Below are positions 21,740 through 37,875 of a DNA stretch of 42,544 nucleotides, one piece after another. Source of the DNA: Candidatus Poribacteria bacterium (GTDB taxonomy: Bacteria; Poribacteria; WGA-4E; GCA-2687025); the NCBI GenBank assembly GCA_002687025.1, contig NYZG01000444.1, forward strand, positions 1 to 42,544, read 5' to 3'. The notes below the pieces were generated by a model. The model had not been told where the DNA came from. It ran no database searches and was given only the letters and a program-made list of their open reading frames with translations. The position numbers and the translations under genes were made by a program. Position 1 is the stretch's first letter. Each line of letters starts with the position of its first letter.

Positions 21740-22804
21740 CTAACTCGTCTCCGTCCATGCGTCGCGGAACAGGCGAATCCAATTCCCGTGCATCACGCCT
21801 TCGACATCGGCTTCGGTGTAGCCGCGCTTGCGCAGCAGGTCGGCAATCTTCTGGAGGTCGGCGATGGTGTCCAGGTCGTGCGGCGTTTGCTCCGTGCCGT
21901 ATCCCCCGTCGAGGTCGCTTCCGATACCGGCATGGCGCGCGTTCCCGGCGAGCTGGCACACATGGTCTATGTGATCGGCCACTGCCTCCAGGCTCACGAC
22001 TTCCGGCTGTGTCCGCTCCTTGATCCAGCCCTCGTAGAGCATCCACGCGTCCAGGGCCGCGCCGATAACGCCTCCGCGCTCGATGACCGCCTTGAGCTGA
22101 TCGTCGGTGAACTGCCGCCCCCCGGACACGAGCGCGCGGCAGTTGTTGTGGCTGGCCAACACCGGGCCGTCGAACGCCTCGACCGCCTCCCAGAACGCCT
22201 GATCGGCGAGGTGCGTCAGGTCGAGGATCATCCCGACGTCCGCCATCGCGTCCAGGAGTGGCCGGCCAAGATCGGTGAGACCGCCTTCCGTGCCCGTGCC
22301 GTGCGCGTAGGCGCTGACCCCGTAGTGCGACGGCCCGACCACGCGCAGCCCGTCATCCCACCAGGAAGCGACCTGATCCGGCGACACGATGGGATCCGCG
22401 CCCTCCATGCTCAGGATCATCCCGAGCGGCGCCTCGGCAGCAGACGCACGCCAGTCGGTTAGCTGGGCGTCGAGGCCCGGGGCATCCGTCACCATGCGGA
22501 TCTTCGCCTGAGACTCCAGCACGCGGTAGTAGGCGAGTTGTCCCTGCGCGTGGGCGTACGAGATCTCCTGGCAGGCGGAGCCCGCGGCGTCGCTCTCGGG
22601 CCGCGCCGTGCGCGCGATGACCGTCACGACCGATAGGCCGACCTCGGCCTTCCGCATCTCGGGCAGCGTGGTCGTGCCACACGCTCGGCCTTTCTGCGAC
22701 ATGTCTCGTTCGTGTTCCCGAATCGCGTAGACGTCGAGATCGAGATTCCGGTCCCAATTCAGTGCGTTCATGGCGAGATCGAGGTGCGCGTCGACAAGCA
22801 GCAT
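21740..22804 (-). CDS. Membrane dipeptidase family (peptidase M19) protein
   Basis: AGGAGGAG upstream of ATG 22804. MLLVDAHLDLAMNAL... and GIGSDLDGGYG match the M19 signature regions. Confidence 0.8.
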   Translation of the reverse strand: MLLVDAHLDLAMNALNWDRNLDLDVYAIREHERDMSQKGRACGTTTLPEMRKAEVGLSVVTVIARTARPESDAAGSACQEISYAHAQGQLAYYRVLESQAKIRMVTDAPGLDAQLTDWRASAAEAPLGMILSMEGADPIVSPDQVASWWDDGLRVVGPSHYGVSAYAHGTGTEGGLTDLGRPLLDAMADVGMILDLTHLADQAFWEAVEAFDGPVLASHNNCRALVSGGRQFTDDQLKAVIERGGVIGAALDAWMLYEGWIKERTQPEVVSLEAVADHIDHVCQLAGNARHAGIGSDLDGGYGTEQTPHDLDTIADLQKIADLLRKRGYTEADVEGVMHGNWIRLFRDAWTETS

Positions 22805-23208
22805 GGCGTCTCCTCCTGTACGCGACACTATCTCATGTGCGGGCGCGTGAGACACGATCCGCTCCGGCCCGCCGTCTCACGCCGCTGTAGGCGCCACTCG
22901 CCGTTCGCCGCGGTCGAAGCATCCCACGCCTACCTGCGCCTCGTGTGCGATGCCATCCGTCCTCTCGGCGGGCGCCCGCGAGAAACGGGTGCACGGATGT
23001 GTCGCCGCGTCCCACTATACCCATGCCGTGTGCGTGCCGGAGCGTGCTGTAGAAGTGCCCGGCGCGACCGAAATCTCCCTACTACCAAGGGGGATGGGCG
23101 GCTGTTCGTGATGAGGCCCGGCGCGAAACGTGCATCCACGCGTACGTGAAATAGGGCATACTGTGCCCCGCGCGATCGCGCCCGTCCGTCAAGACCAGGG
23201 TGAGTTGC

Positions 23209-25170
23209 ATGATCTTCGTCAGACGCGCGCTTCTGCTTGCGACGTGTGTCGCGGTGGCGGGAGCCGCTCATCAAGCGCACGGCCAAGAGGTGTACAGCCT
23301 CTTCGGCAAGCTGTTTCTGTCGGGTCGTGTCGAGTACGACTTCACGCAGCGCCGCGACTTCCTCACCGACGTCGAGGACCATCACGTCCAACAGAACGAG
23401 TTCGACTTCGACCGCATCTTCCGGCGCGGCTTCCACAGCGTGATGATCATCGAGGAACAGGCGGGAGCTACGAAGAACATCCTCAGCCTCGGTGAGGTGC
23501 CCACTACCTTCACGCGTCTGAGCTTCGACCAGGTGGACATGACGGGCGTACGCTGGGATGTGCGCGGCAAACGCACCGACTGGTCCGCGATCATGGTCCC
23601 CGGCTCTCTGAACCCGGTGATTGGGCAGGAACACATCACGGGGTCCGGCGTCGGTCTGCGTCAGGTGACGAAGACGTCCCGTGCGAAGTACGGCGCGGCG
23701 TGGTACTTCCGCGAGACGCCCGTCCTGTCGGTCGACGTCGAGGCGAGCTTCACAAACATAGGCCGCAAGGCGGAGTTCGCGATCACTCCCAAGGGCTCCG
23801 TGACGAACGACCTGCGAGGACGCGCCGACGCGTCGGCCGCGGTTTACAAGGAGTTCCACACGATCGGCGACACGATCGTCCAGTTGGAGGCGTTCCGCGT
23901 CGGCCCTCACTTCGACGCCTCACGATCCGTCGGCGACAACGACGACCAGGACCGTTATACCGACAACACGCCGTTGGACCCACCGTCGAAGATCATCCCG
24001 GGAGACCTCGACAAGAACGACAACGGCGTCTTCGACTACGAGGACGATGTCCTTCTGTTCGACGTCGACGAGGACTTCCTGGACGAAGGAGACCGCAACA
24101 ACAACGGCGTCCGCGATCAGGAAGAGAACGACAAGGACCCGAACTACGAATTCGACGCGGCCAGACGCGGCCTGCGGCTGTGGCTGACGCGGCGGAAGTC
24201 CACGCGCGACACGGCCACGGACGTGGACCTCGGCGTGCGCTACGAGACCACCCTCGGCGACGAGGATGTCACGCCGCACGCGACGGCGACAAAGCTCTTC
24301 TCGAACGTCGAACACCGCCGAACCGTCGGGAAGGCGTCCGTGTTGCAGCTCGACAACGAGCTGAAGTACGTGCGAGACGCGATCCCCGACGAGACGTGGC
24401 ACTTCGCGGCGCGGCTGAGCCCCGCGGAGGCCGCGGCATATCGCGCCCTTCCCAAGACGGCCGCCCTCGAAGCGGCGGGCGAGATTGGCTTCCTCGAATT
24501 CGAGGGCGTCACCGAGGTCGAGCGCAGACGCCGCGACCCGATCTCGATGCAGAACGACATCATCAACACGACCAAGCTGACGTGGGAATACTCGGGGATA
24601 CGACAATTCGTCGCGACGGCCCGTGCGAAGCTCCAGTACGACCTGGACATCGACGGAGAAGACGAACAGTACGAGGTGGGCATCCTGAAGGCGCGCTACA
24701 CATTCCGCCCGTCGAAGAAGCTCGAAGTCAGTCCGATGCTGAAGTACACCGTCCGCGACGGCTTCCGGCGGGACGAGGCGCGCCTGGAAGATGTCGCCGT
24801 CGCGGATTTCGTGACCGGCGATGACGGAATCGAGGTACCCAGCGAGGTAGAACGCGTGCGACTGCGGCGCATCGACGAGACGGACGTGCGCGACATGGCG
24901 ACGGCTGTCATCCTCCGCGTCGAGAACCAATTCACGCCGACTATCCGGCTAACCGGCGGCGTGCAACTGCTCCTGTTCGACGATCTGCTGGAAGACGACA
25001 ACGACTTCATCCGGCAGGCGGTGCTCGCCGAGATGGAGAAGAGCTTCCAGGCATACAACCGCGACATGTTCCTCCACATCGGCGCGCGGTACATCGATCA
25101 GCGGGCGCGAGGCGACCTGAACGACGCGAACTTTATGGAGACCTTCGTCCGCGTTTTCGCGAAGTTCTGA
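23209..25170 (+). CDS. Outer-membrane beta-barrel protein (uncharacterised family) with an acidic thrombospondin-type-3-like Ca-binding insert
   Basis: Signal peptide MIFVRRALLLATCVAVAGAAHQAHG/QE. Alternating-hydrophobic strands throughout. Terminal ...ETFVRVFAKF (C-terminal Phe). Acidic insert at nt 23935-24156. The ORF is also open from GTG 23200. Confidence 0.8.
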   Translation: MIFVRRALLLATCVAVAGAAHQAHGQEVYSLFGKLFLSGRVEYDFTQRRDFLTDVEDHHVQQNEFDFDRIFRRGFHSVMIIEEQAGATKNILSLGEVPTTFTRLSFDQVDMTGVRWDVRGKRTDWSAIMVPGSLNPVIGQEHITGSGVGLRQVTKTSRAKYGAAWYFRETPVLSVDVEASFTNIGRKAEFAITPKGSVTNDLRGRADASAAVYKEFHTIGDTIVQLEAFRVGPHFDASRSVGDNDDQDRYTDNTPLDPPSKIIPGDLDKNDNGVFDYEDDVLLFDVDEDFLDEGDRNNNGVRDQEENDKDPNYEFDAARRGLRLWLTRRKSTRDTATDVDLGVRYETTLGDEDVTPHATATKLFSNVEHRRTVGKASVLQLDNELKYVRDAIPDETWHFAARLSPAEAAAYRALPKTAALEAAGEIGFLEFEGVTEVERRRRDPISMQNDIINTTKLTWEYSGIRQFVATARAKLQYDLDIDGEDEQYEVGILKARYTFRPSKKLEVSPMLKYTVRDGFRRDEARLEDVAVADFVTGDDGIEVPSEVERVRLRRIDETDVRDMATAVILRVENQFTPTIRLTGGVQLLLFDDLLEDDNDFIRQAVLAEMEKSFQAYNRDMFLHIGARYIDQRARGDLNDANFMETFVRVFAKF

Positions 25171-25180
25171 CAGGATCTGA

Positions 25181-25852
25181 ATGCGACGTATGGCCAATCT
25201 GGCGACGATAAGCAGGTCGGAATTCCTGCGCCTCCTGGGCATCTCCGGTGTGGCGTTTGCGCTCGGGGAGACTGCTGCCTCGGGTTCGCCGACGGTGGTG
25301 CGGTGTCAGCTGACGCCCAACGTGCTGCTTGTCGGCCGCCGCAACGTCTTCCGTGCGCATGTGTCCGGCCTCGGCGACGCGCCGTCGAGGGCGTCCTGCA
25401 TGGGTCTCCAGTCCGCCGGCAGGCCCGCCGTACGCGGCGAGGTGACTTTCGACTTCGACGGCGTCGTGCAGCCTACGCTTGAGGCCGCGGGGGGAATAAC
25501 GCGCGTCGCGGTGCACGGCCCGGACTTTCGCGGCAATGCCCCAGTGATGCTGGTGCGGCCGGAAGCGTGCCTTATCTACCGGACGAGCGTTAGGGGCCGG
25601 AAGGCGTGTCCGAGGTGTCGGGACCACGCGGAGAACGTCGTGTACGTGTCTCGTCAGGCCGCCGAGGAAGGGCGCTGTCATCCGCGGTGTCGCTGTCCGA
25701 TCGTGTCGGAGAAGGCGCACTGGGAGGTCTTCGCACGCGCCTTCTGGCCCACGGGGCCGGGCGCGGGAGTTCTGCATGACCGCCGCTGGGGGTGGCCGGC
25801 CCCGGCTCCGGTTGGGCTCGCGCTGCAAACAGTTTCAGGACCAAGGGGGTAA
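25181..25852 (+). CDS. Exported (Tat-like signal) hypothetical protein with an Ada-N-terminal-like Cys/His motif
   Basis: AGGA 5 nt upstream of the ATG, 10 nt after the OMP stop. N-terminus MRRMANLATISRSEFLRLLGISGVAFALG. Motif CPRCRDHAENVVYVSRQAAEEGRCHPRCRCP (nt 25607-25696). Third-position G/C bias favours this frame over the antisense ORFs. Confidence 0.65.
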   Translation: MRRMANLATISRSEFLRLLGISGVAFALGETAASGSPTVVRCQLTPNVLLVGRRNVFRAHVSGLGDAPSRASCMGLQSAGRPAVRGEVTFDFDGVVQPTLEAAGGITRVAVHGPDFRGNAPVMLVRPEACLIYRTSVRGRKACPRCRDHAENVVYVSRQAAEEGRCHPRCRCPIVSEKAHWEVFARAFWPTGPGAGVLHDRRWGWPAPAPVGLALQTVSGPRG

Positions 25853-25909
25853 TACCCGGGGCTCCTGCCAGACAGGACGCCTCGGGGGCTGAGTCGCGCT
25901 GTCGTCATC

Positions 25910-25937
25910 TGTACCTGGCGAGCATACGCCAGGTACA
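25910..25937 (+). terminator. Perfect 11-bp hairpin TGTACCTGGCG-AGCATA-CGCCAGGTACA; possible terminator or attenuator
   Basis: Located 58 nt after the stop at 25852 and 65 nt before ATG 26002. A short GGTTTTAG follows 7 nt downstream, so the U-tract is displaced and weak. Confidence 0.45.
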
Positions 25938-26001
25938 AGAGTGGTTTTAGCCCGCCTCGGCCTCCCTTTTTCGTTCGCTTCCAGGATGGAGCTAACCGAC
26001 C

Positions 26002-29000
26002 ATGCGACGCGCCGTTGTCCGAGCGCTGCTCCTGATGTTCGCCGCCGTCGTCGTGGGCTGTTCGTCGCATCCGTCGGCACGCTCCCCGAGCGGGTCTAGC
26101 GAACCCGCGTCTGCCGCGGCTGCCGCGCCCGCCGCGTCGAAGGCGGATACTCAGCGGACGCTCATCAGCAACCGCGTCCGAGCGATATCGGCCGACGCGA
26201 CGAACGTGTGGATAGCCACCGACCGAGGCGTGTCCAGGCTCGTGCGGGCCACGGGCAATTGGATGCACTACACGCAGGACGACGGCCTCGAGTCCGACGA
26301 CGTGCGTGATGTCGTCGCCGACGACCGCGCGGTGTGGTTCGGCACGCGGGCAGGCGTGAACGTGTACGACGTGCAGGCGGACACGTGGCGCACGTTCCAG
26401 GAACGAGAGGGCGTCGGAGCCAACGACATCAACAAGATCGCGCTCGACGACCAGTACGTCTGGGTCGGCACCGCCTACAACGGCGTCAGTCGCTACGACC
26501 GGCGCACGGAGAGCTGGGCGGTGCGGAACCGCGGCGACGGCCTCTCTCAAGACGGCGTGACGGCGCTTGCCGTTGGTCGGGACTCCGTGTGGGTGGGCAC
26601 GTACCGCGGGGCCAATCGCTATGACAGCACGACCGATTCGTGGAACGTGTATCAACGGCAGGACGGCCTCGTGGAGGGCGCCACGGCCGCCATCGGCATC
26701 GCGGACAACCTCGTCTGGCTGGGCTCCGAAGATAGTGGCATCAGCGTATACGACGAGGTCAACAGATCGTTCGTGCAGACCTTCACGAAGTCCGACCTGC
26801 TCAACAGCGACGACATCACCGCGATCCTGAGCGACGGGTCGAGCATTTGGATCGGCGCGGGCAACGGCGGCGCTCAGCGATACATCCGCGCCGTCGACTC
26901 GTGGATTCAGTACACCACCGACGACGGTCTTGCCAGCAACCACGTGAGCGCCATCGCCGTCCACGGCGATGAGGTGTGGCTAGGGACGCGGGACAACGGC
27001 GTCAGCGTCTACGACAAGGTCCGCAACCGGTGGACTCACTACGCCAAGGCCGACTCCCCGCCGGAGGAGGAGATCGTCGACATCGCCGAAGACGCCGACG
27101 GCGCGGTGTGGCTCGCGACCCCTCGCGGCCTGTACCGCCACGAGCCGTCGACCGACGCATGGACGCGTTTTGGCAAGAGAGACGGCCTGCCGACCGAGTA
27201 CATCACAGCCGTGGAGACACGAGGCGACGTCCTGTGGGTGGGCACGTCACGCGGGCTCTCGCGGGCCCGACTGCGCGATGGGGCTCTTGTCGTCGAGGAA
27301 GTCGCCGCGGCCGGGCGCTACATCACGGCGCTCGCCCACGCCGCCGATGGGCTGTATGTCGGCGCCGATGACGGTCTGTACCAACGGGACGCGGAAGGCA
27401 TCGACCACGCACTGCCCGACGGCGCAGGTCAGCGCGTCCTCTCCCTGACGGCTGGCGAGCGCGGCGTCTGGGTGGGCGCGGAAGACGGCGCATACCTGGC
27501 CGGCTCGGAGCCCGGCCGCCTGACCCGCATATGGACTCGGAGCCCGGTGAACGACATGGCTGAGGCGAATGGCGCGGCATGGCTCGCGACCGACGATGGT
27601 CTGGTCCGACACGACTCGGAAACTGGGGTCACGATTATCCCCGTCGGTCACCGCCGCCGGCTGACGAGCGTTGTGCGCGGGGCGGATGGCAAGACGATAT
27701 GGCTCGGGTCGCCGTCCGGCTTGGGCTCCCTGGATAGTGCGACGCTGGAGGTCACTGCGGCGCCCGTCGCGGGGTTGTCGATTCGCTCCCTCGCGTCACG
27801 CGCAGACGGCGGCTTGTGGATAGGCGCGACGAACGGCCTCGCCCATCTCGATCCGACCGATGGCGTGGTCAGTCACGACGCGTACGTCGTCCGCGACCCC
27901 CTCGTCGAGGACAGCGCCGCCCACATCACGTACGACGGCGACTACATCTGGTTCTCGAACTGGGTCAAGTCGGTCAACGGCGCGATCGTCCGTCACGACC
28001 GCCGTGACGGGACATGGCGCCGGTTCACCCGCGAGACGATCCTAGGCACGACGCGCGCGAAGGCGCCGACCGAGGTGAAGCGCATCGTGGCCGCGAACGG
28101 ACGCGTCTGGTTCGCCACCGACTACGGCGTGCTGAGGTACGACCACGCGTCAGACGGCTGGCGTCATTACACGACCGCCGACGGCCTACAGTCGAACAAC
28201 GTGCGCACGCTGGCCGTCTCGGACAACGTGGCGTGGGTCGCCTCGGAGTTCTCGACACGCCTGAGCCGGCTCGACATCGCCAGCGACGAGTGGTCGCGCT
28301 TCCGGCCGTCGCGTCTCATCCACCCGCGCAACTATGTCTACGACATGAGCGCCGACGCCGACGGCGTGTGGCTCACGCTGAGCTCGTCGGGCGTACGGCG
28401 GTTCGGCGAGGATGGCTCCGAGACTGTCCACATGAAGGATGACGGCCTCGCGCAGACGGGCGCACGCTGGATCGAGGTCGAGGGCCACCGCGTCTGGGTC
28501 GCGCACTGGAATGGACGCGGGAACGGCGCGCTGTCGATGTACGACAAGCACACGGGCGTGTGGACCGTGTACTCCGACGGCGATGTGCTCGAACAGGACT
28601 TCGTCTCCAAGGTCGTCGTCGGCGATCAGTACGTGTGGATCCTCTACGACGAGTGGCAGGAGGGCAGCGTCACGGGGTACCACCGCAAGACGGGCGAGTG
28701 GCTCACCATACGCCCGCGGGAGGAATGGGGAGCGCAGGTCGTCGAGGCGTGGGAAGCGGGAGCCTTCCTTTGGCTCGCGGCCAGGCAGGGCGGCGTCCAT
28801 CGGTACCATCTCGCCTCGGGCACGTGGGCGCGGTTCAGCCAGGAGAACCATCTCCCCATCGACGTCGTCGGCGAGCGAGGCCTGAACGGCGACGACACCT
28901 ACGCGTGGATCGCGACGCCAGCGGGCATCGGCCGATACAACATAGCCTCCTGGACATGGACGATATTCCGCAGCCGCGAGCAGATGACCGGCGCCGAGGT

Positions 29001-30177
29001 CCGGGCCGTCGCTGTCGACGAGCGTTACGTCTGGACCGGCACGAGCGAAGGCATCTCGCGCTACGACAAGATGTACGGCGGCTGGCGGCCGGTACGCTGG
29101 TTCAGGACCATCGCACACGTTCGCGCGCTGACCGTCGATCCGCGCTACCTGTGGGTCGGCACGGGTCAGGGCGCCTACCGGTACGACAAGATCACCGACC
29201 GATGGTGGAACTTCCGCGTGTGGAACGGGCTACCGAGCGACACCGTGTCCGCTATCGCCGTAGACGAGACGGACGTGTGGATGGGCACGACCCGCGGCGT
29301 GGGCAAGTTCACGCGCCTATCCGATGATCGCAACGCGTGGGTGTCGTACACGGCGGCGATGGAACTCACCGCGGACGAGCTCGACCGGGAGTACTCAGAG
29401 ACGCTGGTGTACAACGACGTGTGGTCCATCGCCGCGCAGGGAGATGAGGTGTGGATCGGCACACGGCTAGGAGCCAGCCAATACCACGACCGACGCGACC
29501 TGTGGCGCACCTTCACGACGGAGAACGGGCTGGCCGACAACGTGATCAGCGCCGTCGCCGTCGATGGCGAGGACGTCTACTTCGCGCACAACGCGGGCGT
29601 GTCCGTCTACCACACGGGCGCCGACTCGTGGGACACCTACGCCAACTCCGATGGGGGCCCGCTGGTCAGCCAGCGCATCACCTCGGCGGTGGTCGGCGCC
29701 GAAGCCATCTGGTTCGGCACGTTCGACGCGGGCGTCATGCGTCTGGACAAGACCACGCGCGAGTGGACGCGACTGAGCGCCGTCGACGGTCTGCCGCACG
29801 ACAACGTCCTGTCTCTCGCGGTGGACGGCCCCGTGCTGTGGGTTGGTACTCAGCTCGGCCTCGCGCGGTACGACACGCTTACGCGGGGCGTCGCGACGTT
29901 CACGCCGTACGGCGACTCCGAGGACCTGCGACACATGGTCGTCACGACCGCTCCGAGCGACGCTTCGGGCGACGCGTCAGCCGAAGCGTCCGAGGGATAC
30001 GGCGGCCCGGTCGTCGGCAACCGGCAGAGCCGCAAGTACCACTTCCCGGGCTCGCCGACGGCCGATCTCGTGAAGCCGTCGAACCGCGTGCAACTCGGGT
30101 CCGTCCGCGAGGCAGAGGAAGCCGGGTACGATCGCGCGGGGAACTTCGCGGAACCTGGTGTTGAGCCCTCGCGCTGA
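26002..30177 (+). CDS. 1391-aa lipoprotein with about 29 'two-component regulator propeller' (Reg_prop) repeats. No TM, kinase or cyclase output. C-terminal Cys-less Ada-like motif.
   Basis: GGATGGAG upstream of the ATG. Lipobox MRRAVVRALLLMFAAVVVG|C. Repeats have the form VW[VI]GT..G[VL].RYD, e.g. VWFGTRAGVNVYD, VWVGTAYNGVSRYD, LWVGTGQGAYRYD. The repeat count was made by hand. The tail is KYHFPGSPTADLVKPSNRVQLGSVREAEEAGYDRAGNF. Confidence 0.9.
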   Translation: MRRAVVRALLLMFAAVVVGCSSHPSARSPSGSSEPASAAAAAPAASKADTQRTLISNRVRAISADATNVWIATDRGVSRLVRATGNWMHYTQDDGLESDDVRDVVADDRAVWFGTRAGVNVYDVQADTWRTFQEREGVGANDINKIALDDQYVWVGTAYNGVSRYDRRTESWAVRNRGDGLSQDGVTALAVGRDSVWVGTYRGANRYDSTTDSWNVYQRQDGLVEGATAAIGIADNLVWLGSEDSGISVYDEVNRSFVQTFTKSDLLNSDDITAILSDGSSIWIGAGNGGAQRYIRAVDSWIQYTTDDGLASNHVSAIAVHGDEVWLGTRDNGVSVYDKVRNRWTHYAKADSPPEEEIVDIAEDADGAVWLATPRGLYRHEPSTDAWTRFGKRDGLPTEYITAVETRGDVLWVGTSRGLSRARLRDGALVVEEVAAAGRYITALAHAADGLYVGADDGLYQRDAEGIDHALPDGAGQRVLSLTAGERGVWVGAEDGAYLAGSEPGRLTRIWTRSPVNDMAEANGAAWLATDDGLVRHDSETGVTIIPVGHRRRLTSVVRGADGKTIWLGSPSGLGSLDSATLEVTAAPVAGLSIRSLASRADGGLWIGATNGLAHLDPTDGVVSHDAYVVRDPLVEDSAAHITYDGDYIWFSNWVKSVNGAIVRHDRRDGTWRRFTRETILGTTRAKAPTEVKRIVAANGRVWFATDYGVLRYDHASDGWRHYTTADGLQSNNVRTLAVSDNVAWVASEFSTRLSRLDIASDEWSRFRPSRLIHPRNYVYDMSADADGVWLTLSSSGVRRFGEDGSETVHMKDDGLAQTGARWIEVEGHRVWVAHWNGRGNGALSMYDKHTGVWTVYSDGDVLEQDFVSKVVVGDQYVWILYDEWQEGSVTGYHRKTGEWLTIRPREEWGAQVVEAWEAGAFLWLAARQGGVHRYHLASGTWARFSQENHLPIDVVGERGLNGDDTYAWIATPAGIGRYNIASWTWTIFRSREQMTGAEVRAVAVDERYVWTGTSEGISRYDKMYGGWRPVRWFRTIAHVRALTVDPRYLWVGTGQGAYRYDKITDRWWNFRVWNGLPSDTVSAIAVDETDVWMGTTRGVGKFTRLSDDRNAWVSYTAAMELTADELDREYSETLVYNDVWSIAAQGDEVWIGTRLGASQYHDRRDLWRTFTTENGLADNVISAVAVDGEDVYFAHNAGVSVYHTGADSWDTYANSDGGPLVSQRITSAVVGAEAIWFGTFDAGVMRLDKTTREWTRLSAVDGLPHDNVLSLAVDGPVLWVGTQLGLARYDTLTRGVATFTPYGDSEDLRHMVVTTAPSDASGDASAEASEGYGGPVVGNRQSRKYHFPGSPTADLVKPSNRVQLGSVREAEEAGYDRAGNFAEPGVEPSR

Positions 30178-30187
30178 CGCTTCGGGC

Positions 30188-30775
30188 TCAGCCGTGGCCG
30201 GTCGCGGAAGGCCACGTCTCCGGCGAGAACGGCCATCCGATCCGGCGACAGATGTCCTCCCATCGGCCGGACATGTCGTCCGCGTACAGCAGCGGATGGA
30301 AGCCGACGCGCAGGTACGTCTTCAGCGCGGCGAGCCTGAAGTCCTCGCTGTAGAGGTCGATCTTCTCATACCCCGCCTCGATAAAGCGCGACACCACGGC
30401 CGCCGTCAGGGCCTTCCCGATCCCACGCCCACTATGCGCCGGGTCGCACGCGAGCCAACCCAGGTTCCCCCAGAAGGGGGTGACCCGCTTGTAGTTGTGC
30501 AGGCACATCGCCGTGCCGACGGCTATGTCGGTGTCCCGAGAGGCGACCACGAACCAACCGCGCGGGATGACCTTCGAGAGTGTTGGGCGCAAGCGGCCGC
30601 CGTCCCAGCCCGGCCAGCCGGCGAGGTCCATGATCTCGTAGAACCGACGCTCGTCGTCGGCGGGCGCGTACTCGCGAAGGACGTACTCGGCAGGTAGCTC
30701 CACGGTCGGAGGACACGCGACACGGGACGCCGGCCACACCATCCTCAACTGCGCTAGCGATTCGTCCCAGCCCAT
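30188..30775 (-). CDS. GNAT family N-acetyltransferase
   Basis: Acetyl-CoA motif A context CDPAHSGRGIGKALTAAVV. ATG 30775 lies 7 nt after the M14 gene stop. The Arg-rich 29-aa ORF extension is rejected. Confidence 0.8.
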   Translation of the reverse strand: MGWDESLAQLRMVWPASRVACPPTVELPAEYVLREYAPADDERRFYEIMDLAGWPGWDGGRLRPTLSKVIPRGWFVVASRDTDIAVGTAMCLHNYKRVTPFWGNLGWLACDPAHSGRGIGKALTAAVVSRFIEAGYEKIDLYSEDFRLAALKTYLRVGFHPLLYADDMSGRWEDICRRIGWPFSPETWPSATGHG

Positions 30776-30782
30776 GCCGCGC

Positions 30783-32435
30783 CTACGCCTCGCACGCGAC
30801 GGCGACCGACTGTGCGCCGCCCTTCTCACTGTGGATCTCGACGTCGCACGTCGCCGCCTCACCGAGACGCACGATCCACTCGGCTTTCTTGCGGCCTCCG
30901 TAGCCCGCGAGATGCCCGAGCTCCTGCTTCGGCGCGCCTGAGACGATCTCGGCGTCGGCCGGCAGTGAGATGGTCGCCGTGACCTGCTTCGCGACGCCCA
31001 GGTCCACCGCGCGACGCGTAATGCTCGTCGGGAGGTACCCGCTGTTCACGACCGCGACCGAGACTCGCCACACGCCGTCGCCAAGCGACTCCGTCTCATG
31101 CACGCTCGCGGAGACACGCGGCAGCGACTTGGCGTGTGCGAACGTGAAGTCGTGGATGTTCCGGCACGTCTCTTCGAGACACTCAAAGGGCGAGTTGTTC
31201 CCCAGCAACGGACGCCATCCTCCGAGCTCCACCGGGCCCAGTTGCGGATGCTCGAACGGCGTCCATCGAATGAACCCGTCCTGCTCCAGCGTCTCATCCG
31301 TCCAGCGCAGCATGTCCAGGTGCATCTGTTCTAGGCCCGCGTGGTCGCGCTCCTTCTCCATGCGGTTGACTTCCATCGGCTCGGGGTTCCCGCGCGCGCG
31401 CATGTCCCACAGTTCGTCGCAGTAGTAGAGGAGGCCGAGGTGGTGGTACGCCCACGCCGCGTGGTCGCCGTACGCCTCGTAGATGTTCTTGTACAGCTCG
31501 TTGTAGGAAAACATCGCGTAGCCGGTGCATTCCTTGCCGTAGTTCCCGATGTCGAGCAACCGCGCGACGTCCTCACGTGGAATGTCGTCGTCGCTTTCGC
31601 TGCACGGCACGCGGATGATCGCCTCGAACCCCGTGTGGAAGCTGTGCATCCCTCCGATATTCGGATGTGCCTTCACGAACTCCGCGATCGCGCGCGTCTC
31701 GGGCTCCGAGAACGGCCAATCTCCCGCGCCGCCCTGCTGAGACCCGATGCGCCAGTTCGACGGGAAGTTGCGATTGAAGTCGAGCCCCTGCTTCGCCGGC
31801 GCGCTTCTGACCTCCACGCCGTCGAAGTTGCGGATCGATCCTTCCTGATACACGCGATAGAACGGGCCGCCCGTGTGGGGTAACGTGTCGTTGAACTCGC
31901 GAGGGATCATCAGCCGGTCGTCGTGTTCCGACACCTTCCATCCACCGGTGTCGTCCTCGATTCGCATCTGGAGGATGCGGCCGTCGCCGTCCACGTCGTC
32001 CGGGTAGAGGCCGTCCTTCTCCTCCTCGTGCGGATACAGACGTGTCCCGCTACGCACGCGCCCCGGCGTGGACAGGCAATGCTCCACGCCGTCCGGGCTG
32101 ACCATCGGGATCAGGTAAAACGCCGTGGTGTCGAGCATCGCGGCTATCTCGGCGTCGTCCGCGTGGCCGCTCAGCAGTCGCCACGCGATGTAGAGACACG
32201 ACGTGCACGCCGTCACCTCGGAGCCGTGGATGTTCGCGTCGATGTAGAGCGCGGGCTTGTTCAGCGCCGCGCCCGTGTCCGCGTTCGTGACGGTGAGCGC
32301 CGGAATGTCGCGGCCCTCGTAGCTCTGCCCGATGACCTCGACCCGCGCGAGCGTGGGGAACTCGTCCGCGAGCTGCGCGAGCAGTGCCACCATCTCGTCG
32401 TAGCGGTAGTACTTGTCGAAGCGCGGCGCTTCCAT
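30783..32435 (-). CDS. M14 family zinc carboxypeptidase, cytosolic (no signal peptide)
   Basis: YYRYDEMVALLAQLADEFP...VIGQSYEGRDI...ALYIDANIHGSEVT (HxxE zinc motif). Confidence 0.88.
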   Translation of the reverse strand: MEAPRFDKYYRYDEMVALLAQLADEFPTLARVEVIGQSYEGRDIPALTVTNADTGAALNKPALYIDANIHGSEVTACTSCLYIAWRLLSGHADDAEIAAMLDTTAFYLIPMVSPDGVEHCLSTPGRVRSGTRLYPHEEEKDGLYPDDVDGDGRILQMRIEDDTGGWKVSEHDDRLMIPREFNDTLPHTGGPFYRVYQEGSIRNFDGVEVRSAPAKQGLDFNRNFPSNWRIGSQQGGAGDWPFSEPETRAIAEFVKAHPNIGGMHSFHTGFEAIIRVPCSESDDDIPREDVARLLDIGNYGKECTGYAMFSYNELYKNIYEAYGDHAAWAYHHLGLLYYCDELWDMRARGNPEPMEVNRMEKERDHAGLEQMHLDMLRWTDETLEQDGFIRWTPFEHPQLGPVELGGWRPLLGNNSPFECLEETCRNIHDFTFAHAKSLPRVSASVHETESLGDGVWRVSVAVVNSGYLPTSITRRAVDLGVAKQVTATISLPADAEIVSGAPKQELGHLAGYGGRKKAEWIVRLGEAATCDVEIHSEKGGAQSVAVACEA

Positions 32436-36133: not shown

Positions 36134-37875
36134 AGATCCAGCCCGTGGCGGAAGTAGCCTTCAACGTGGTGGCGTCCGACGGGAGCTTCGACCGGGACCT
36201 GCGCCTCGGCGTCGGTCCCGAGGGCTCCATTGAGACCGGCCCGTCGACCACGGGCAGCATCACGGACATGACGGCCGAGCAGTCGCCACCGGAGGCCCCC
36301 GGGACCTCTTTCCGTGCCTGGATCGCCAGCACGGGCGCCCTCCTGCGGGACATCCAGGAGATCAGCTCGTCGCCGGTCACCCGCTCGTGGCCCATTTACG
36401 TGCGCACGGGTACTACCGGCGCCGACTCGATCCTACGCTGGTATGCCCCCGACGTGAACGCGCTCGTAATGCAGCTCGACACCTCCACCGGCGTGCCGCA
36501 CTCGGCGACCATCGCCGACCTGGCCACCGGTGAAACCTGGGAACTCACGGGCGACGTGTGGGGCGAGATTTACCTGGCGGACAACCGGTCGTACAACTTC
36601 GACGTGGTGTTGACGCCGTCCGCGGGGGAGACGTTCGTCGATGGGAATCTGATCGCCGGCTGGAACCTCGTATCGGTCCCGGGCATCGGAGATCTGAGCA
36701 ACCTCGACGCGATGTCGAACTCCGCGTTCGTGTGGAACGGCCAGTATCAGGGCGTCGGGTTCCTGACGCAGGCTGAAGTGCCGGCCGTCACGGCGGGCGT
36801 CTTCATCAACTCCAACGGCGGGGCATACGGCCTCAATGTGGACGTTGACAGCTCGTCCATACGGGATGTCACGGCGTATCTCAACGCGGGATGGAACCTC
36901 ATTGGGGCGCCGTCCAACGTGGATTCGGGCTCCGGCCTTCCGGTCAGCAACGTCACGTCGCAGTTCAACAACCAGGCCGCCGTGTTCGCGTACGACCCGA
37001 GTAGCCGCAGCTACACGTTGGCGAATGAACTCGTCGCGGGCAATGGGTATTGGGTCTACAACGACACCGGCACGCAGGTAGATGTCCAGCTCACGCAGCC
37101 GCGCCACCTCGGCCCGGACGGTTCGTCTCTGTTCCACCCGGCGCAGATGGCGGCCGCGCCCGCGTTGTCGAGCCTCGACTGGAGCCTGCCCGTCACCCTC
37201 GCGGCGGAAGACGGCTCGCTGCGCACCGTGCAACTGGGGCTGAGCTCCGACGCGTCGGTCGGCTACGACCGGCTCGACGTCCCGATGCCTCCGCCGCCGC
37301 CGGTTCGGGCGTACTCGCAGCTCTACGTCGCCGTCGACGACGCGGTCGGGCGACTGACCCGAAGCGTCCAGGCGATGGAGCGCAGCGGGACCGAGTGGGT
37401 GATGAACGCGCGCATAGACGGCTCATCGGGTGTCATCGAGTGGCAGCGGCCGAGCGTGCCGGAGCACTGGCGTCTCACCATGCAAGCGGGCGGCAGGCGC
37501 GTGGACATGGCCGAGAGGCAGTCGTTGGCGCTCACCGGCGGCACGCACGATCTCCGCGTCACGCTGACGTGGATCGCCCCGACGGCCACGCGGCTCATGC
37601 CGAACTACCCGAACCCGTTCAACCCCGAGACGTGGATCCCGTTCGAGCTGACGCAGGCAGCGGATGTGACCGTTCGCGTGTATGGGCAGGACGGCGCCGT
37701 CGTCCGCACGCTGGAGCTCGGCTACCGCGCCGAGGGTTACTACACCGGCATCGGGGACGCGGCGTATTGGGATGGTCGCAACGAATCGGGCGAGCAGGTC
37801 GCCAGCGGCGTGTATCTCTACGAGCTGCAGGCCGGCGAGTACCGCGCGATACGCCGCATGGTGATCCTCAAATAG
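36109..37875 (+). CDS. Same adhesin-like protein, C-terminal part in the -1 frame (ORF open from 35986), ending in the FlgD-Ig / T9SS-type C-terminal domain
   Basis: Coding-quality sequence continues in the other frame from ...PVTASLSVKIQPVAEV. Repeated GWNL[VI] motifs. C-terminal NYPNPFNPETWIPFEL...AAYWDGRN...SGVYLYEL. No independent RBS or signal peptide. Confidence 0.75.
   Translation, partial: PVTASLSVKIQPVAEVAFNVVASDGSFDRDLRLGVGPEGSIETGPSTTGSITDMTAEQSPPEAPGTSFRAWIASTGALLRDIQEISSSPVTRSWPIYVRTGTTGADSILRWYAPDVNALVMQLDTSTGVPHSATIADLATGETWELTGDVWGEIYLADNRSYNFDVVLTPSAGETFVDGNLIAGWNLVSVPGIGDLSNLDAMSNSAFVWNGQYQGVGFLTQAEVPAVTAGVFINSNGGAYGLNVDVDSSSIRDVTAYLNAGWNLIGAPSNVDSGSGLPVSNVTSQFNNQAAVFAYDPSSRSYTLANELVAGNGYWVYNDTGTQVDVQLTQPRHLGPDGSSLFHPAQMAAAPALSSLDWSLPVTLAAEDGSLRTVQLGLSSDASVGYDRLDVPMPPPPPVRAYSQLYVAVDDAVGRLTRSVQAMERSGTEWVMNARIDGSSGVIEWQRPSVPEHWRLTMQAGGRRVDMAERQSLALTGGTHDLRVTLTWIAPTATRLMPNYPNPFNPETWIPFELTQAADVTVRVYGQDGAVVRTLELGYRAEGYYTGIGDAAYWDGRNESGEQVASGVYLYELQAGEYRAIRRMVILK

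Follow-up and report, generated by a model that had tools for sequence, protein, structure and literature searches.

The window, the whole 42,544-nucleotide stretch of Candidatus Poribacteria DNA analysed here, carries on its forward strand a large repeat-protein gene, P0001, preceded by genes for a small cysteine-rich protein and an outer-membrane-type protein. The features to which we refer are as follows.

23200 to 25170, + strand: partner gene for a 656-aa outer-membrane-type protein (GC3 0.85), with a signal peptide and the C-terminal end ...FVRVFAKF
25181 to 25852, + strand: gene separating the barrel and propeller genes; its 223-aa product is rich in Cys, has a Tat-like signal and matches no family
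26002 to 30177, + strand: propeller lipoprotein gene P0001, a single open reading frame of 1391 aa (GC3 0.86), with GGAG 10 nt 5' of the ATG
26002 to 26061, + strand: signal peptide and lipobox, residues 1-20, VVG-C20, read from the sequence
26173 to 27057, + strand: propeller 1, repeats 1-7, residues 58-352 (repeat HMM; four-strand units in the AF2 model, pLDDT ~95)
27070 to 27903, + strand: propeller 2, repeats 8-14, residues 357-634 (repeat HMM; AF2 pLDDT 67-93)
27919 to 28854, + strand: propeller 3, repeats 15-21, residues 640-951 (repeat HMM and AF2 C-half model; putative border with propeller 4)
28888 to 29913, + strand: propeller 4, repeats 22-29, residues 963-1304 (repeat HMM and AF2 C-half model)
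30010 to 30150, + strand: sunset-like (Ada-like, Cys-less) C-terminal mini-domain, residues ~1337-1383 (weak NF051437 match; AF2)

The product of P0001 is predicted to be a lipid-anchored envelope protein, which bears out an earlier note on this DNA that had called it a lipoprotein. Its signal peptide, the sole strongly hydrophobic segment of the protein (KD19 = 2.12), ends in the lipobox MRRAVVRALLLMFAAVVVG followed by C, with the h-region closing as LLLMFAAVVVG-C20, and so fits the pattern [LVI][ASTVI][GAS]C that we used to define a lipobox at this position. The lipobox cysteine is conserved at a level of at least 90% among 54 propeller homologues; homologues are 1300-1570 aa long and cover 90-100% of P0001. 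A promoter and terminator scan of positions 22700-30500 returned nothing informative.

Twenty-nine blades and the search for an output

An iterated repeat HMM built from the P0001 protein itself delimits 29 repeats between residues 58 and 1304 (window positions 26173-29913), close to the earlier estimate of about 29 repeats from residue ~70 to ~1300, and a regular expression for the core motif proposed at that time matches 27 sites in the protein. The repeat period is 42-44 aa, about 43 aa, shorter than the 45-50 aa first given. Assignment to the Reg_prop propeller family holds, with Pfam Reg_prop (PF07494) scoring 107.8 bits against a cut-off of 20.4 and the best Foldseek matches being Reg_prop-type sensors and PorZ. 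The repeats were also said to be too diverged at the DNA level for a recent amplification, and we reach the same view because P0001 contains no tandem array of ~130 nt, the sole repeats at the DNA level being short, 60-80% identical matches around the VWxGT core.

AlphaFold (AF2) models of the N-terminal and C-terminal halves of P0001 (pLDDT 89.8 and 84.8) contain 14 and 15 four-strand units, respectively. Together with the 29 HMM repeats, these models agree with the earlier proposal of about four stacked propellers, and P0001 most likely consists of four consecutive Reg_prop-type beta-propellers in a 7+7+7+8 partition. Across 54 homologues, propeller 1 is the best conserved module (mean identity 0.50), with a sharp fall past repeat 7, propeller 2 is the variable module (0.27) and holds the length-changing inserts of homologues, and propeller 3 recovers to 0.44; these steps in conservation at repeats 7/8 and 14/15 indicate module borders there. 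Profile-profile scores from 50 homologues give no period-7 signal across the 29 repeat positions, so for the C-terminal half we place the borders between propellers by inference; in the same scores repeats 1-3 resemble repeats 26-28, and tight clusters lie within repeats 9-14 and 17-20. If the other propellers have seven blades, eight of the 15 units modelled for the C half belong to propeller 4. This propeller also carries a conserved non-blade insert (residues 1119-1138) after a near-invariant SDDxNAW motif, modelled by AF2 as helical at low confidence.

Neither Pfam nor NCBIfam, at E values up to 1, gave a HisKA/HATPase, receiver or DNA-binding match in P0001; Pfam found no Y_Y_Y (Ig-like) domain, and we found no second transmembrane helix, the maximum over 19-residue Kyte-Doolittle windows beyond the signal peptide being 1.34. 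Having no Y_Y_Y domain, transmembrane helix, kinase or receiver, P0001 was rejected as a sensor kinase. The claim that the protein has no signalling output thus stands, but a folded C-terminal domain at residues ~1337-1383 had been missed. Past blade 29, the AF2 model holds only a disordered linker and this 45-residue mini-domain, which has a beta-beta-beta-alpha pattern at pLDDT 80-88. The last 45 residues match NF051437, the sunset domain, which bears a distant likeness to the zinc domain at the N terminus of Ada (PF02805), at 18-23 bits: 18.3 bits with the whole protein, 23.2 with the tail alone and 22.2 in a genome scan, where the P0001 tail is the sole match, against a cut-off of 27. In a 47%-identical homologue, P0009, the tail reaches 38 bits to NF051437 and 18.4 bits to Pfam Ada_Zn_binding, while the P0001 tail differs from Ada in having no cysteine at the zinc positions. 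Most family members stop directly after the last blade (81% gaps in the tail columns of 54 homologues). A literature search on the sunset domain and on Reg_prop lipoproteins found nothing relevant.

A folded tail invites the reading that P0001 is a stand-alone periplasmic sensor, relaying by contact, for example via the sunset-like domain, to a separately encoded signalling protein. The closest characterised structural relatives of P0001 are indeed sensor domains, and a PAS-domain signalling protein follows one propeller homologue. We nonetheless consider such a relay very unlikely, given that no signalling gene is a conserved neighbour of the propeller gene, that most homologues are tail-less, and that the conserved partner is an outer-membrane protein rather than an inner-membrane transducer. 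The sunset-like domain, present in this sub-lineage only, would instead serve as an accessory module for binding rather than as an output for signalling.

The probable outer-membrane partner and its distribution

The signal peptide, C-terminal Phe, amphipathic beta segments and weak SlpA_C matches of the 656-aa partner suggest an outer-membrane barrel of ~650 aa; a crude count of amphipathic strands gives at least 15 segments, a figure too rough to serve as a strand number. By sequence, the partner finds no match in Pfam, NCBIfam or the PDB; a search of these with eight to ten remote relatives added, using a sequence profile for the PDB, also yielded nothing above threshold, and neither Plug nor TonB_dep_Rec matched the partner or 21 homologues. 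Its mean column identity is 78%, and it is a single-copy protein that is 58-63% identical across the phylum, compared with 37-41% for the propeller protein. Two EF-hand-like acidic loops, DKN[DN]NGxFDYED and D[RE]NNNGxRDxEE, are invariant. Both this conserved upstream neighbour and the C-terminal sunset-like domain had gone unused in the earlier note.

Among the best 80 GTDB loci of the propeller family, all of which are Poribacteria or unnamed MAGs, 54 carry the barrel gene directly beside the propeller gene in the same orientation. In 52 loci the barrel gene is the downstream one; in this window and in loci L006 and L007 it is upstream, giving two gene orders. The propeller family of ~1400 aa is so far restricted to Candidatus Poribacteria, where it is present in 125 of 151 genomes (about 83%); the barrel has exactly this distribution, present in those 125 and absent from the other 26, and losses of the pair split within four genera. 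The two genes are not adjacent in some lineages, and propeller paralogues exist without a barrel neighbour or stand in tandem, up to three ahead of one barrel. The joint retention of the two genes across the phylum argues that propeller lipoprotein and barrel probably form an undescribed envelope complex.

The 223-aa Cys-rich protein is a doubtful member of this module. It is confined to the closest relatives (L006, L007 and the P0002 locus), with a 34%-identical relative of 144 aa lying 3.3 kb upstream of P0013. A candidate shared motif between its Cys-rich region and the P0001 tail proved unsupported, as BLASTP gave no alignment.

Could the pair be a structural element of the envelope, in which a very large SlpA/OmpM-related barrel and a rigid four-propeller array form or tether a layer at the surface or in the periplasm? 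The weak matches to SlpA_C (PF21620), at E 0.05 in 5 of 22 barrel homologues and also precomputed on two remote relatives, point in this direction, as does the extreme conservation of the barrel, and the tandem propeller paralogues would fit a building block. The SlpA similarity is, however, far under threshold, no SLH or coiled-coil tether domain is present, and absence of the pair from 26 of the 151 genomes, some of them in genera that otherwise have it, would be unusual for a core wall element. We therefore judge a purely structural role unlikely.

The gene neighbourhood says less about the ligand than had been supposed. A glycosidase-rich neighbourhood had been offered as an argument for glycan capture, an argument that we find weak: the GH53 and BNR/LamG genes near P0001 lie on the opposite strand, peptidases are equally close, and none of these neighbours is conserved at other propeller loci, nor did the Poribacteria loci reveal any conserved glycan-gene neighbours of the pair. 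Remote members of the barrel family are also encoded, beside other large binding proteins, by MAGs that carry the labels Elusimicrobiota, Spirochaetes, Latescibacterota and Omnitrophota. The Elusimicrobiota homologue sits in a sugar-utilisation locus, among CBM30 and discoidin proteins, an ABC sugar transporter and a glycoamylase.

A putative capture module and known systems

A ligand-binding or structural role is still the best reading for P0001. Within it we favour, and hold to be reasonably probable, the view that P0001 is a non-signalling ligand-binding accessory lipoprotein with four propellers, belonging to a Poribacteria-specific two-gene barrel-lipoprotein envelope module. Lipoprotein and barrel would be complexed at the outer membrane. 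Contacts to the barrel, and those internal to the lipoprotein, would fall to the conserved propellers 1, 3 and 4, leaving the fast-evolving propeller 2 to point towards the ligand or the environment. Such an array might capture a polymer, most plausibly a glycan, and pass it to or take it from the barrel. A glycan ligand is plausible by analogy, with indirect support from the known relatives of the fold and from the Elusimicrobiota barrel homologue in its sugar-utilisation locus. As a tentative extension, which we regard as possible rather than probable, the pair may represent, in Poribacteria, a so far undescribed outer-membrane machine that works independently of TonB to capture and move polymers; its parts would be a very large barrel with the invariant calcium-loop motif NGxxDYxEDxLLF and, as the arm that binds the substrate, the four-propeller lipoprotein.

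The uncultured Poribacteria are dominant symbionts of sponges and are noted for their use of complex carbohydrates, and a pair carried by about 83% of their genomes marks a gap in our understanding of the poribacterial envelope. In P0001 the Reg_prop module is doubled to four propellers, has no output, is lipid-anchored and appears coupled to a highly conserved outer-membrane protein of an undescribed family; confirmation of such a complex would illustrate the re-use of a sensor domain as a non-signalling binding scaffold. As the barrel family extends to several other poorly studied phyla, one solved pair could annotate many genomes.

To our knowledge, the Reg_prop propellers described so far are nearly all either sensing heads of glycan-responsive kinases or PorZ, and every characterised one that we know of has a glycan ligand. 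The best PDB matches found by Foldseek for both halves of P0001 fall in these two groups (BT4663, BT3049, BT4673 and PorZ; E 1e-24 to 1e-19). The Bacteroides thetaiotaomicron hybrid two-component sensors BT4663 (4a2l/4a2m), BT3049 (3v9f) and BT4673 (3ott/3va6), whose sensor domains match at E 1e-24 to 1e-20, share with P0001 the Reg_prop repeat and tandem seven-bladed propellers, and the ligand of BT4663 is an oligosaccharide. They have two propellers, whereas P0001 has four with 29 blades, about twice the usual number, as the earlier note had recognised; P0001 is moreover lipid-anchored, has an outer-membrane partner and is without the Y_Y_Y domain, transmembrane helix, kinase, receiver and AraC output of these sensors.

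PorZ (5m11), of the Porphyromonas gingivalis type IX secretion attachment complex, is likewise output-less, has A-LPS, a glycan, as its ligand and is kept in place by an outer-membrane barrel (PMC5121618; PMC8545088), and we count this precedent in favour of a lipoprotein-barrel complex. It shares the output-less propeller fold with P0001 (Foldseek E 1e-19), and its TM-score of 0.44-0.51 is the highest among the Reg_prop-fold matches. This likeness raises an alternative, a poribacterial type-IX-like system for secretion and attachment in which the pair would play a PorZ/PorQ-like part: the lipoprotein, sitting on the barrel, would bind a surface glycolipid and help to anchor or process Por_Secre_tail cargo. 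Such cargo is abundant: TIGR04183 C-terminal domains number at least 50 in this genome, where the only one on this contig (37606-37866) lies outside the propeller gene, and they are present in all 151 Poribacteria searched; Kamke et al. (2014; PMC3909097) noted that it was not known by which route such poribacterial proteins are secreted. Yet the 26 genomes without the pair still hold many cargo-type domains, and a SprA-like open reading frame of ~2200 aa occurs in three genomes without the pair and in two with it. Because cargo domains and SprA-like reading frames are thus present regardless of the pair, we rejected the pair as a core part of the type IX system. PorZ further differs in having two propellers and a type IX C-terminal domain and in not being a lipoprotein, whereas P0001 has four propellers, a lipobox and no sorting domain; the NCBIfam PorZ equivalog NF052228 scores P0001 at 66.7 bits, short of its cut-off of 260, and the ~650-aa barrel matches no PorQ/PorP-type family. 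A type-IX-like role for the pair accordingly seems quite unlikely to us.

For the capture module that we favour, the SusD-SusC systems of Bacteroidota offer a working analogy: there too, a lipoprotein that binds the substrate is paired at the gene level with an outer-membrane barrel, and additional lipoprotein paralogues are sometimes present. The two systems show no homology, since the barrel here is without a Plug or TonB-dependent receptor domain and the lipoprotein consists of all-beta propellers rather than the TPR-like SusD fold. We thus envisage a poribacterial pair that would follow the logic of SusD-SusC or PorZ-PorQ while building it around a non-homologous barrel.

Twenty-nine Reg_prop blades behind a predicted lipid anchor

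The propeller lipoprotein is encoded by one open reading frame, whose third-position GC content is typical of real genes in a window of 67% GC.

26002..30177, + strand: propeller lipoprotein ORF, 1391 aa, third-position GC 0.86

A regular expression for the core motif proposed in the earlier note found 27 copies in this protein, and a repeat HMM, seeded with these copies and then iterated on the protein, found exactly 29 repeats between residues 58 and 1304, in agreement with the earlier count of about 29 but with a period of 42-44 residues, slightly shorter than the 45-50 aa claimed. The repeats score 107.8 bits in Pfam Reg_prop (PF07494), whose threshold is 20.4. Tandem Repeats Finder reported no array with the blade-repeat period in the DNA, and all that a direct-repeat search returned were short stretches, 60-80% identical, around the VWxGT codons, which argues that the blades are old and bears out the earlier claim that no recent amplification occurred. 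The N-terminal signal peptide, with its terminal lipobox LLLMFAAVVVG|C20, is the sole hydrophobic segment of the protein (the runner-up among 19-residue windows reaches 1.34), and the lipobox cysteine shows at least 90% conservation across 54 homologues of the family. Searches of Pfam and NCBIfam detected no Y_Y_Y, kinase, receiver or DNA-binding domain; the protein had been described as a lipoprotein without output, and to call it a "sensor without output" is correct.

We modelled the protein with AF2 as two pieces, residues 46-700 (mean pLDDT 89.8, pTM 0.79) and 640-1391 (mean pLDDT 84.8, pTM 0.62), using 54 aligned full-length homologues for each. Predicted secondary structure contains 14 complete four-strand units in repeats 1-14 and 15 in the remainder, and therefore 29 blades. 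For both halves, the best Foldseek matches in the PDB were BT4663, BT3049 and BT4673 (E 1e-24 to 1e-20), periplasmic tandem seven-bladed propellers of Bacteroides hybrid two-component systems, followed in second place by PorZ (E about 1e-19) and only then by eukaryotic tandem WD40 proteins; because of this ranking, we assign the repeats to the Reg_prop-type propeller family originally named. A partner-dependent sensor, which would share its fold with these Bacteroides proteins and, having no output domain of its own, rely on another protein, ranks well below the binding role proposed below.

Across the 54 homologues, mean identity was 0.50, 0.27, 0.44 and 0.45 for repeats 1-7, 8-14, 15-21 and 22-29, falling sharply past repeat 7 and recovering past repeat 14, and these steps support propeller borders at both positions. 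A search for period-7 similarity among the blades found none; the simplest division of the last 15 blades would be 7+8. Propeller 2 (window 27070-27903) is the fast-evolving module, with 27% mean identity versus 44-50% elsewhere, and carries long low-complexity Ser/Gln/Thr-rich inserts in several longer homologues, P0075, P0084, P0093 and P0097.

Past the blades, a low-complexity linker leads to a small domain (residues about 1337-1383, AF2 pLDDT 80-88), a feature of the gene absent from the earlier note. It scores 18-23 bits against the NCBIfam "sunset" domain, slightly short of the 27-bit cut-off; in a homologue of 47% identity, the equivalent tail reaches 38 bits to "sunset" and 18 bits to Pfam Ada_Zn_binding. 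The window's tail lacks cysteines where Ada has its zinc positions. A genome scan found no other sunset-like match in the window's own genome. About 81% of homologues end directly past blade 29 without a tail, and a few carry a lamin-tail domain in its place. The sunset-like tail is an optional add-on rather than a recognised signalling output.

A Poribacteria family and its putative barrel partner

A database search returned at least 120 related proteins of 844-1572 aa (nearly all 1200-1570), 30-86% identical over most of their length, and every relative named to an organism belongs to Candidatus Poribacteria. GTDB species genomes contain 224 stretches encoding a relative; among the best 80 of these, all with an assigned organism are from Poribacteria and the others are metagenome-assembled genomes (MAGs) without a name. 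The searches, which were not designed to exclude occurrence elsewhere, found no four-propeller form outside this phylum. Within it, a match at E 1e-50 or better occurs in 125 of 151 sampled genomes, including 109 of the 131 of high quality, and the family keeps a blade number of 29-30. The window's own genome encodes a second member, and other genomes carry up to three tandem copies.

G000:C390:2242-6267 (locus L005), - strand: second family member in the window's own genome, 62% identical, on an 8-kb contig, without sunset-like tail

Most neighbours of the propeller gene differ between loci. Clustering of the ORFs flanking 80 propeller loci identified a homologue of about 650 aa, corresponding to one window gene, that adjoins the propeller gene on the same strand at 54 of the 80.

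23200-25170, + strand: putative barrel partner, a 656-aa outer-membrane-type protein
between barrel gene and propeller gene: lineage-specific gene for a 223-aa Cys-rich Tat-type protein

The barrel gene lies directly downstream of the propeller gene in 52 distant loci, and upstream of it, with the 223-aa gene intervening, in the window and the two loci most closely related to it. Across the 151 genomes, among which related genomes are not independent, the barrel is present in the same 125 as the propeller and not found in the same 26, a tally that matches genus by genus and includes partial absences inside four genera. That two genes occur together, are lost together and adjoin each other in two gene orders is a classical signature of a functional pair. 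The inverted, barrel-first gene order, the 223-aa gene and the sunset-like tail are particular to the window.

Apart from one distant relative of 144 aa, which lies close to a further family member with a sunset tail, the 223-aa protein occurs only in close relatives; a candidate motif common to it and the tail had no BLASTP support. A perfect 10-bp inverted repeat, GTACCTGGCG-AGCATA-CGCCAGGTAC (window 25911-25937), followed by GGTTTTAG, lies in the 150 nt that separate the propeller gene from the 223-aa gene; it could be a terminator or attenuator that sets the propeller gene apart from the two genes upstream. On one Poribacteria chromosome (locus L002, 3641-18569), three paralogues of about 1400 aa stand in tandem, all of them with a lipobox, and are followed by a 699-aa ORF in the barrel's usual position, a likeness by position only. 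Elsewhere in the window, the ORFs listed for a GNAT protein (30188-30862, - strand) and an M14 carboxypeptidase (30783-32435, - strand) overlap by 80 nt (30783-30862); the true GNAT start is probably further downstream.

The barrel partner is single-copy, 58-63% identical across the phylum versus 37-41% for the propeller, and has a mean column identity of 78%. It has a signal peptide, many amphipathic beta segments, a C-terminus (FVRVF[AG]KF) typical of outer-membrane proteins and, in an acidic insert that hardly varies, two EF-hand-like loops. Searches of Pfam, NCBIfam and PDB sequences gave no match save sub-threshold SlpA_C. Against 1.8 billion representatives, its profile retrieved only remote relatives of 700-1100 aa, which have the acidic motif and a portion of the barrel in common with it and to which the searches assigned no family; the few with an organism label come from MAGs labelled Elusimicrobiota, Spirochaetes, Latescibacterota and Omnitrophota.

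L086 8001-10412: remote barrel relative (Elusimicrobiota MAG), 803 aa, acidic NGxPDYxEDFLxF motif, no Pfam family
L087 8001-10625: remote barrel relative, 874 aa, acidic NGxPDYxEDFLxF motif, no Pfam family

Judged by sequence, the barrel partner and these proteins may form a wider unnamed outer-membrane protein family. The Elusimicrobiota relative neighbours CBM30 and discoidin-domain proteins, an ABC sugar transporter, a LacI regulator and a glycoamylase; another is flanked by a discoidin protein on one side and a TPR protein on the other, with a Reg_prop sigma-54 activator nearby.

A putative ligand-binding envelope complex

The most economical explanation is that the propeller protein would form a complex with the barrel, in which it would be the lipid-anchored subunit that binds the ligand. 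Fixed contacts would be made through propellers 1, 3 and 4, which are conserved, and propeller 2, which evolves fast and is prone to insertions, would be turned towards a variable ligand or the environment. Our best guess for the ligand, by analogy, is a glycan, since to our knowledge every Reg_prop-fold protein characterised to date is a glycan binder and the genes around the remote barrel relative point the same way. The glycosidase-rich neighbourhood, on which the glycan argument formerly drew, is not conserved in other Poribacteria loci. That the pair instead builds a structural layer we consider well below the binding-subunit reading.

Comparison with PorZ and type-IX-like secretion

PorZ has the same propeller fold as the Poribacteria protein and is held on a barrel (PMC8545088), and we therefore examined a possible membership of the pair in a type-IX-like system. 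In the window's genome, at least 50 ORFs have a T9SS-type Por_Secre_tail domain at their C-terminus (TIGR04183; for example, window 37606-37866), and many such domains occur in each of the 151 Poribacteria genomes searched, in line with Kamke et al. 2014, where cargo domains but no structural genes were reported (PMC3909097). All five complete genomes tested contain ORFs of about 2200 aa that resemble SprA (TIGR04189), matching it in several segments at scores below the family cut-off; a GldM search gave no match, and its control search was likewise silent. Three of the five genomes lack the pair, which is therefore not a core part of such a system but may be accessory to it. An attachment role like that of PorZ, a propeller of the same fold likewise associated with a barrel, stands well below the reading of the propeller protein as a binding subunit.
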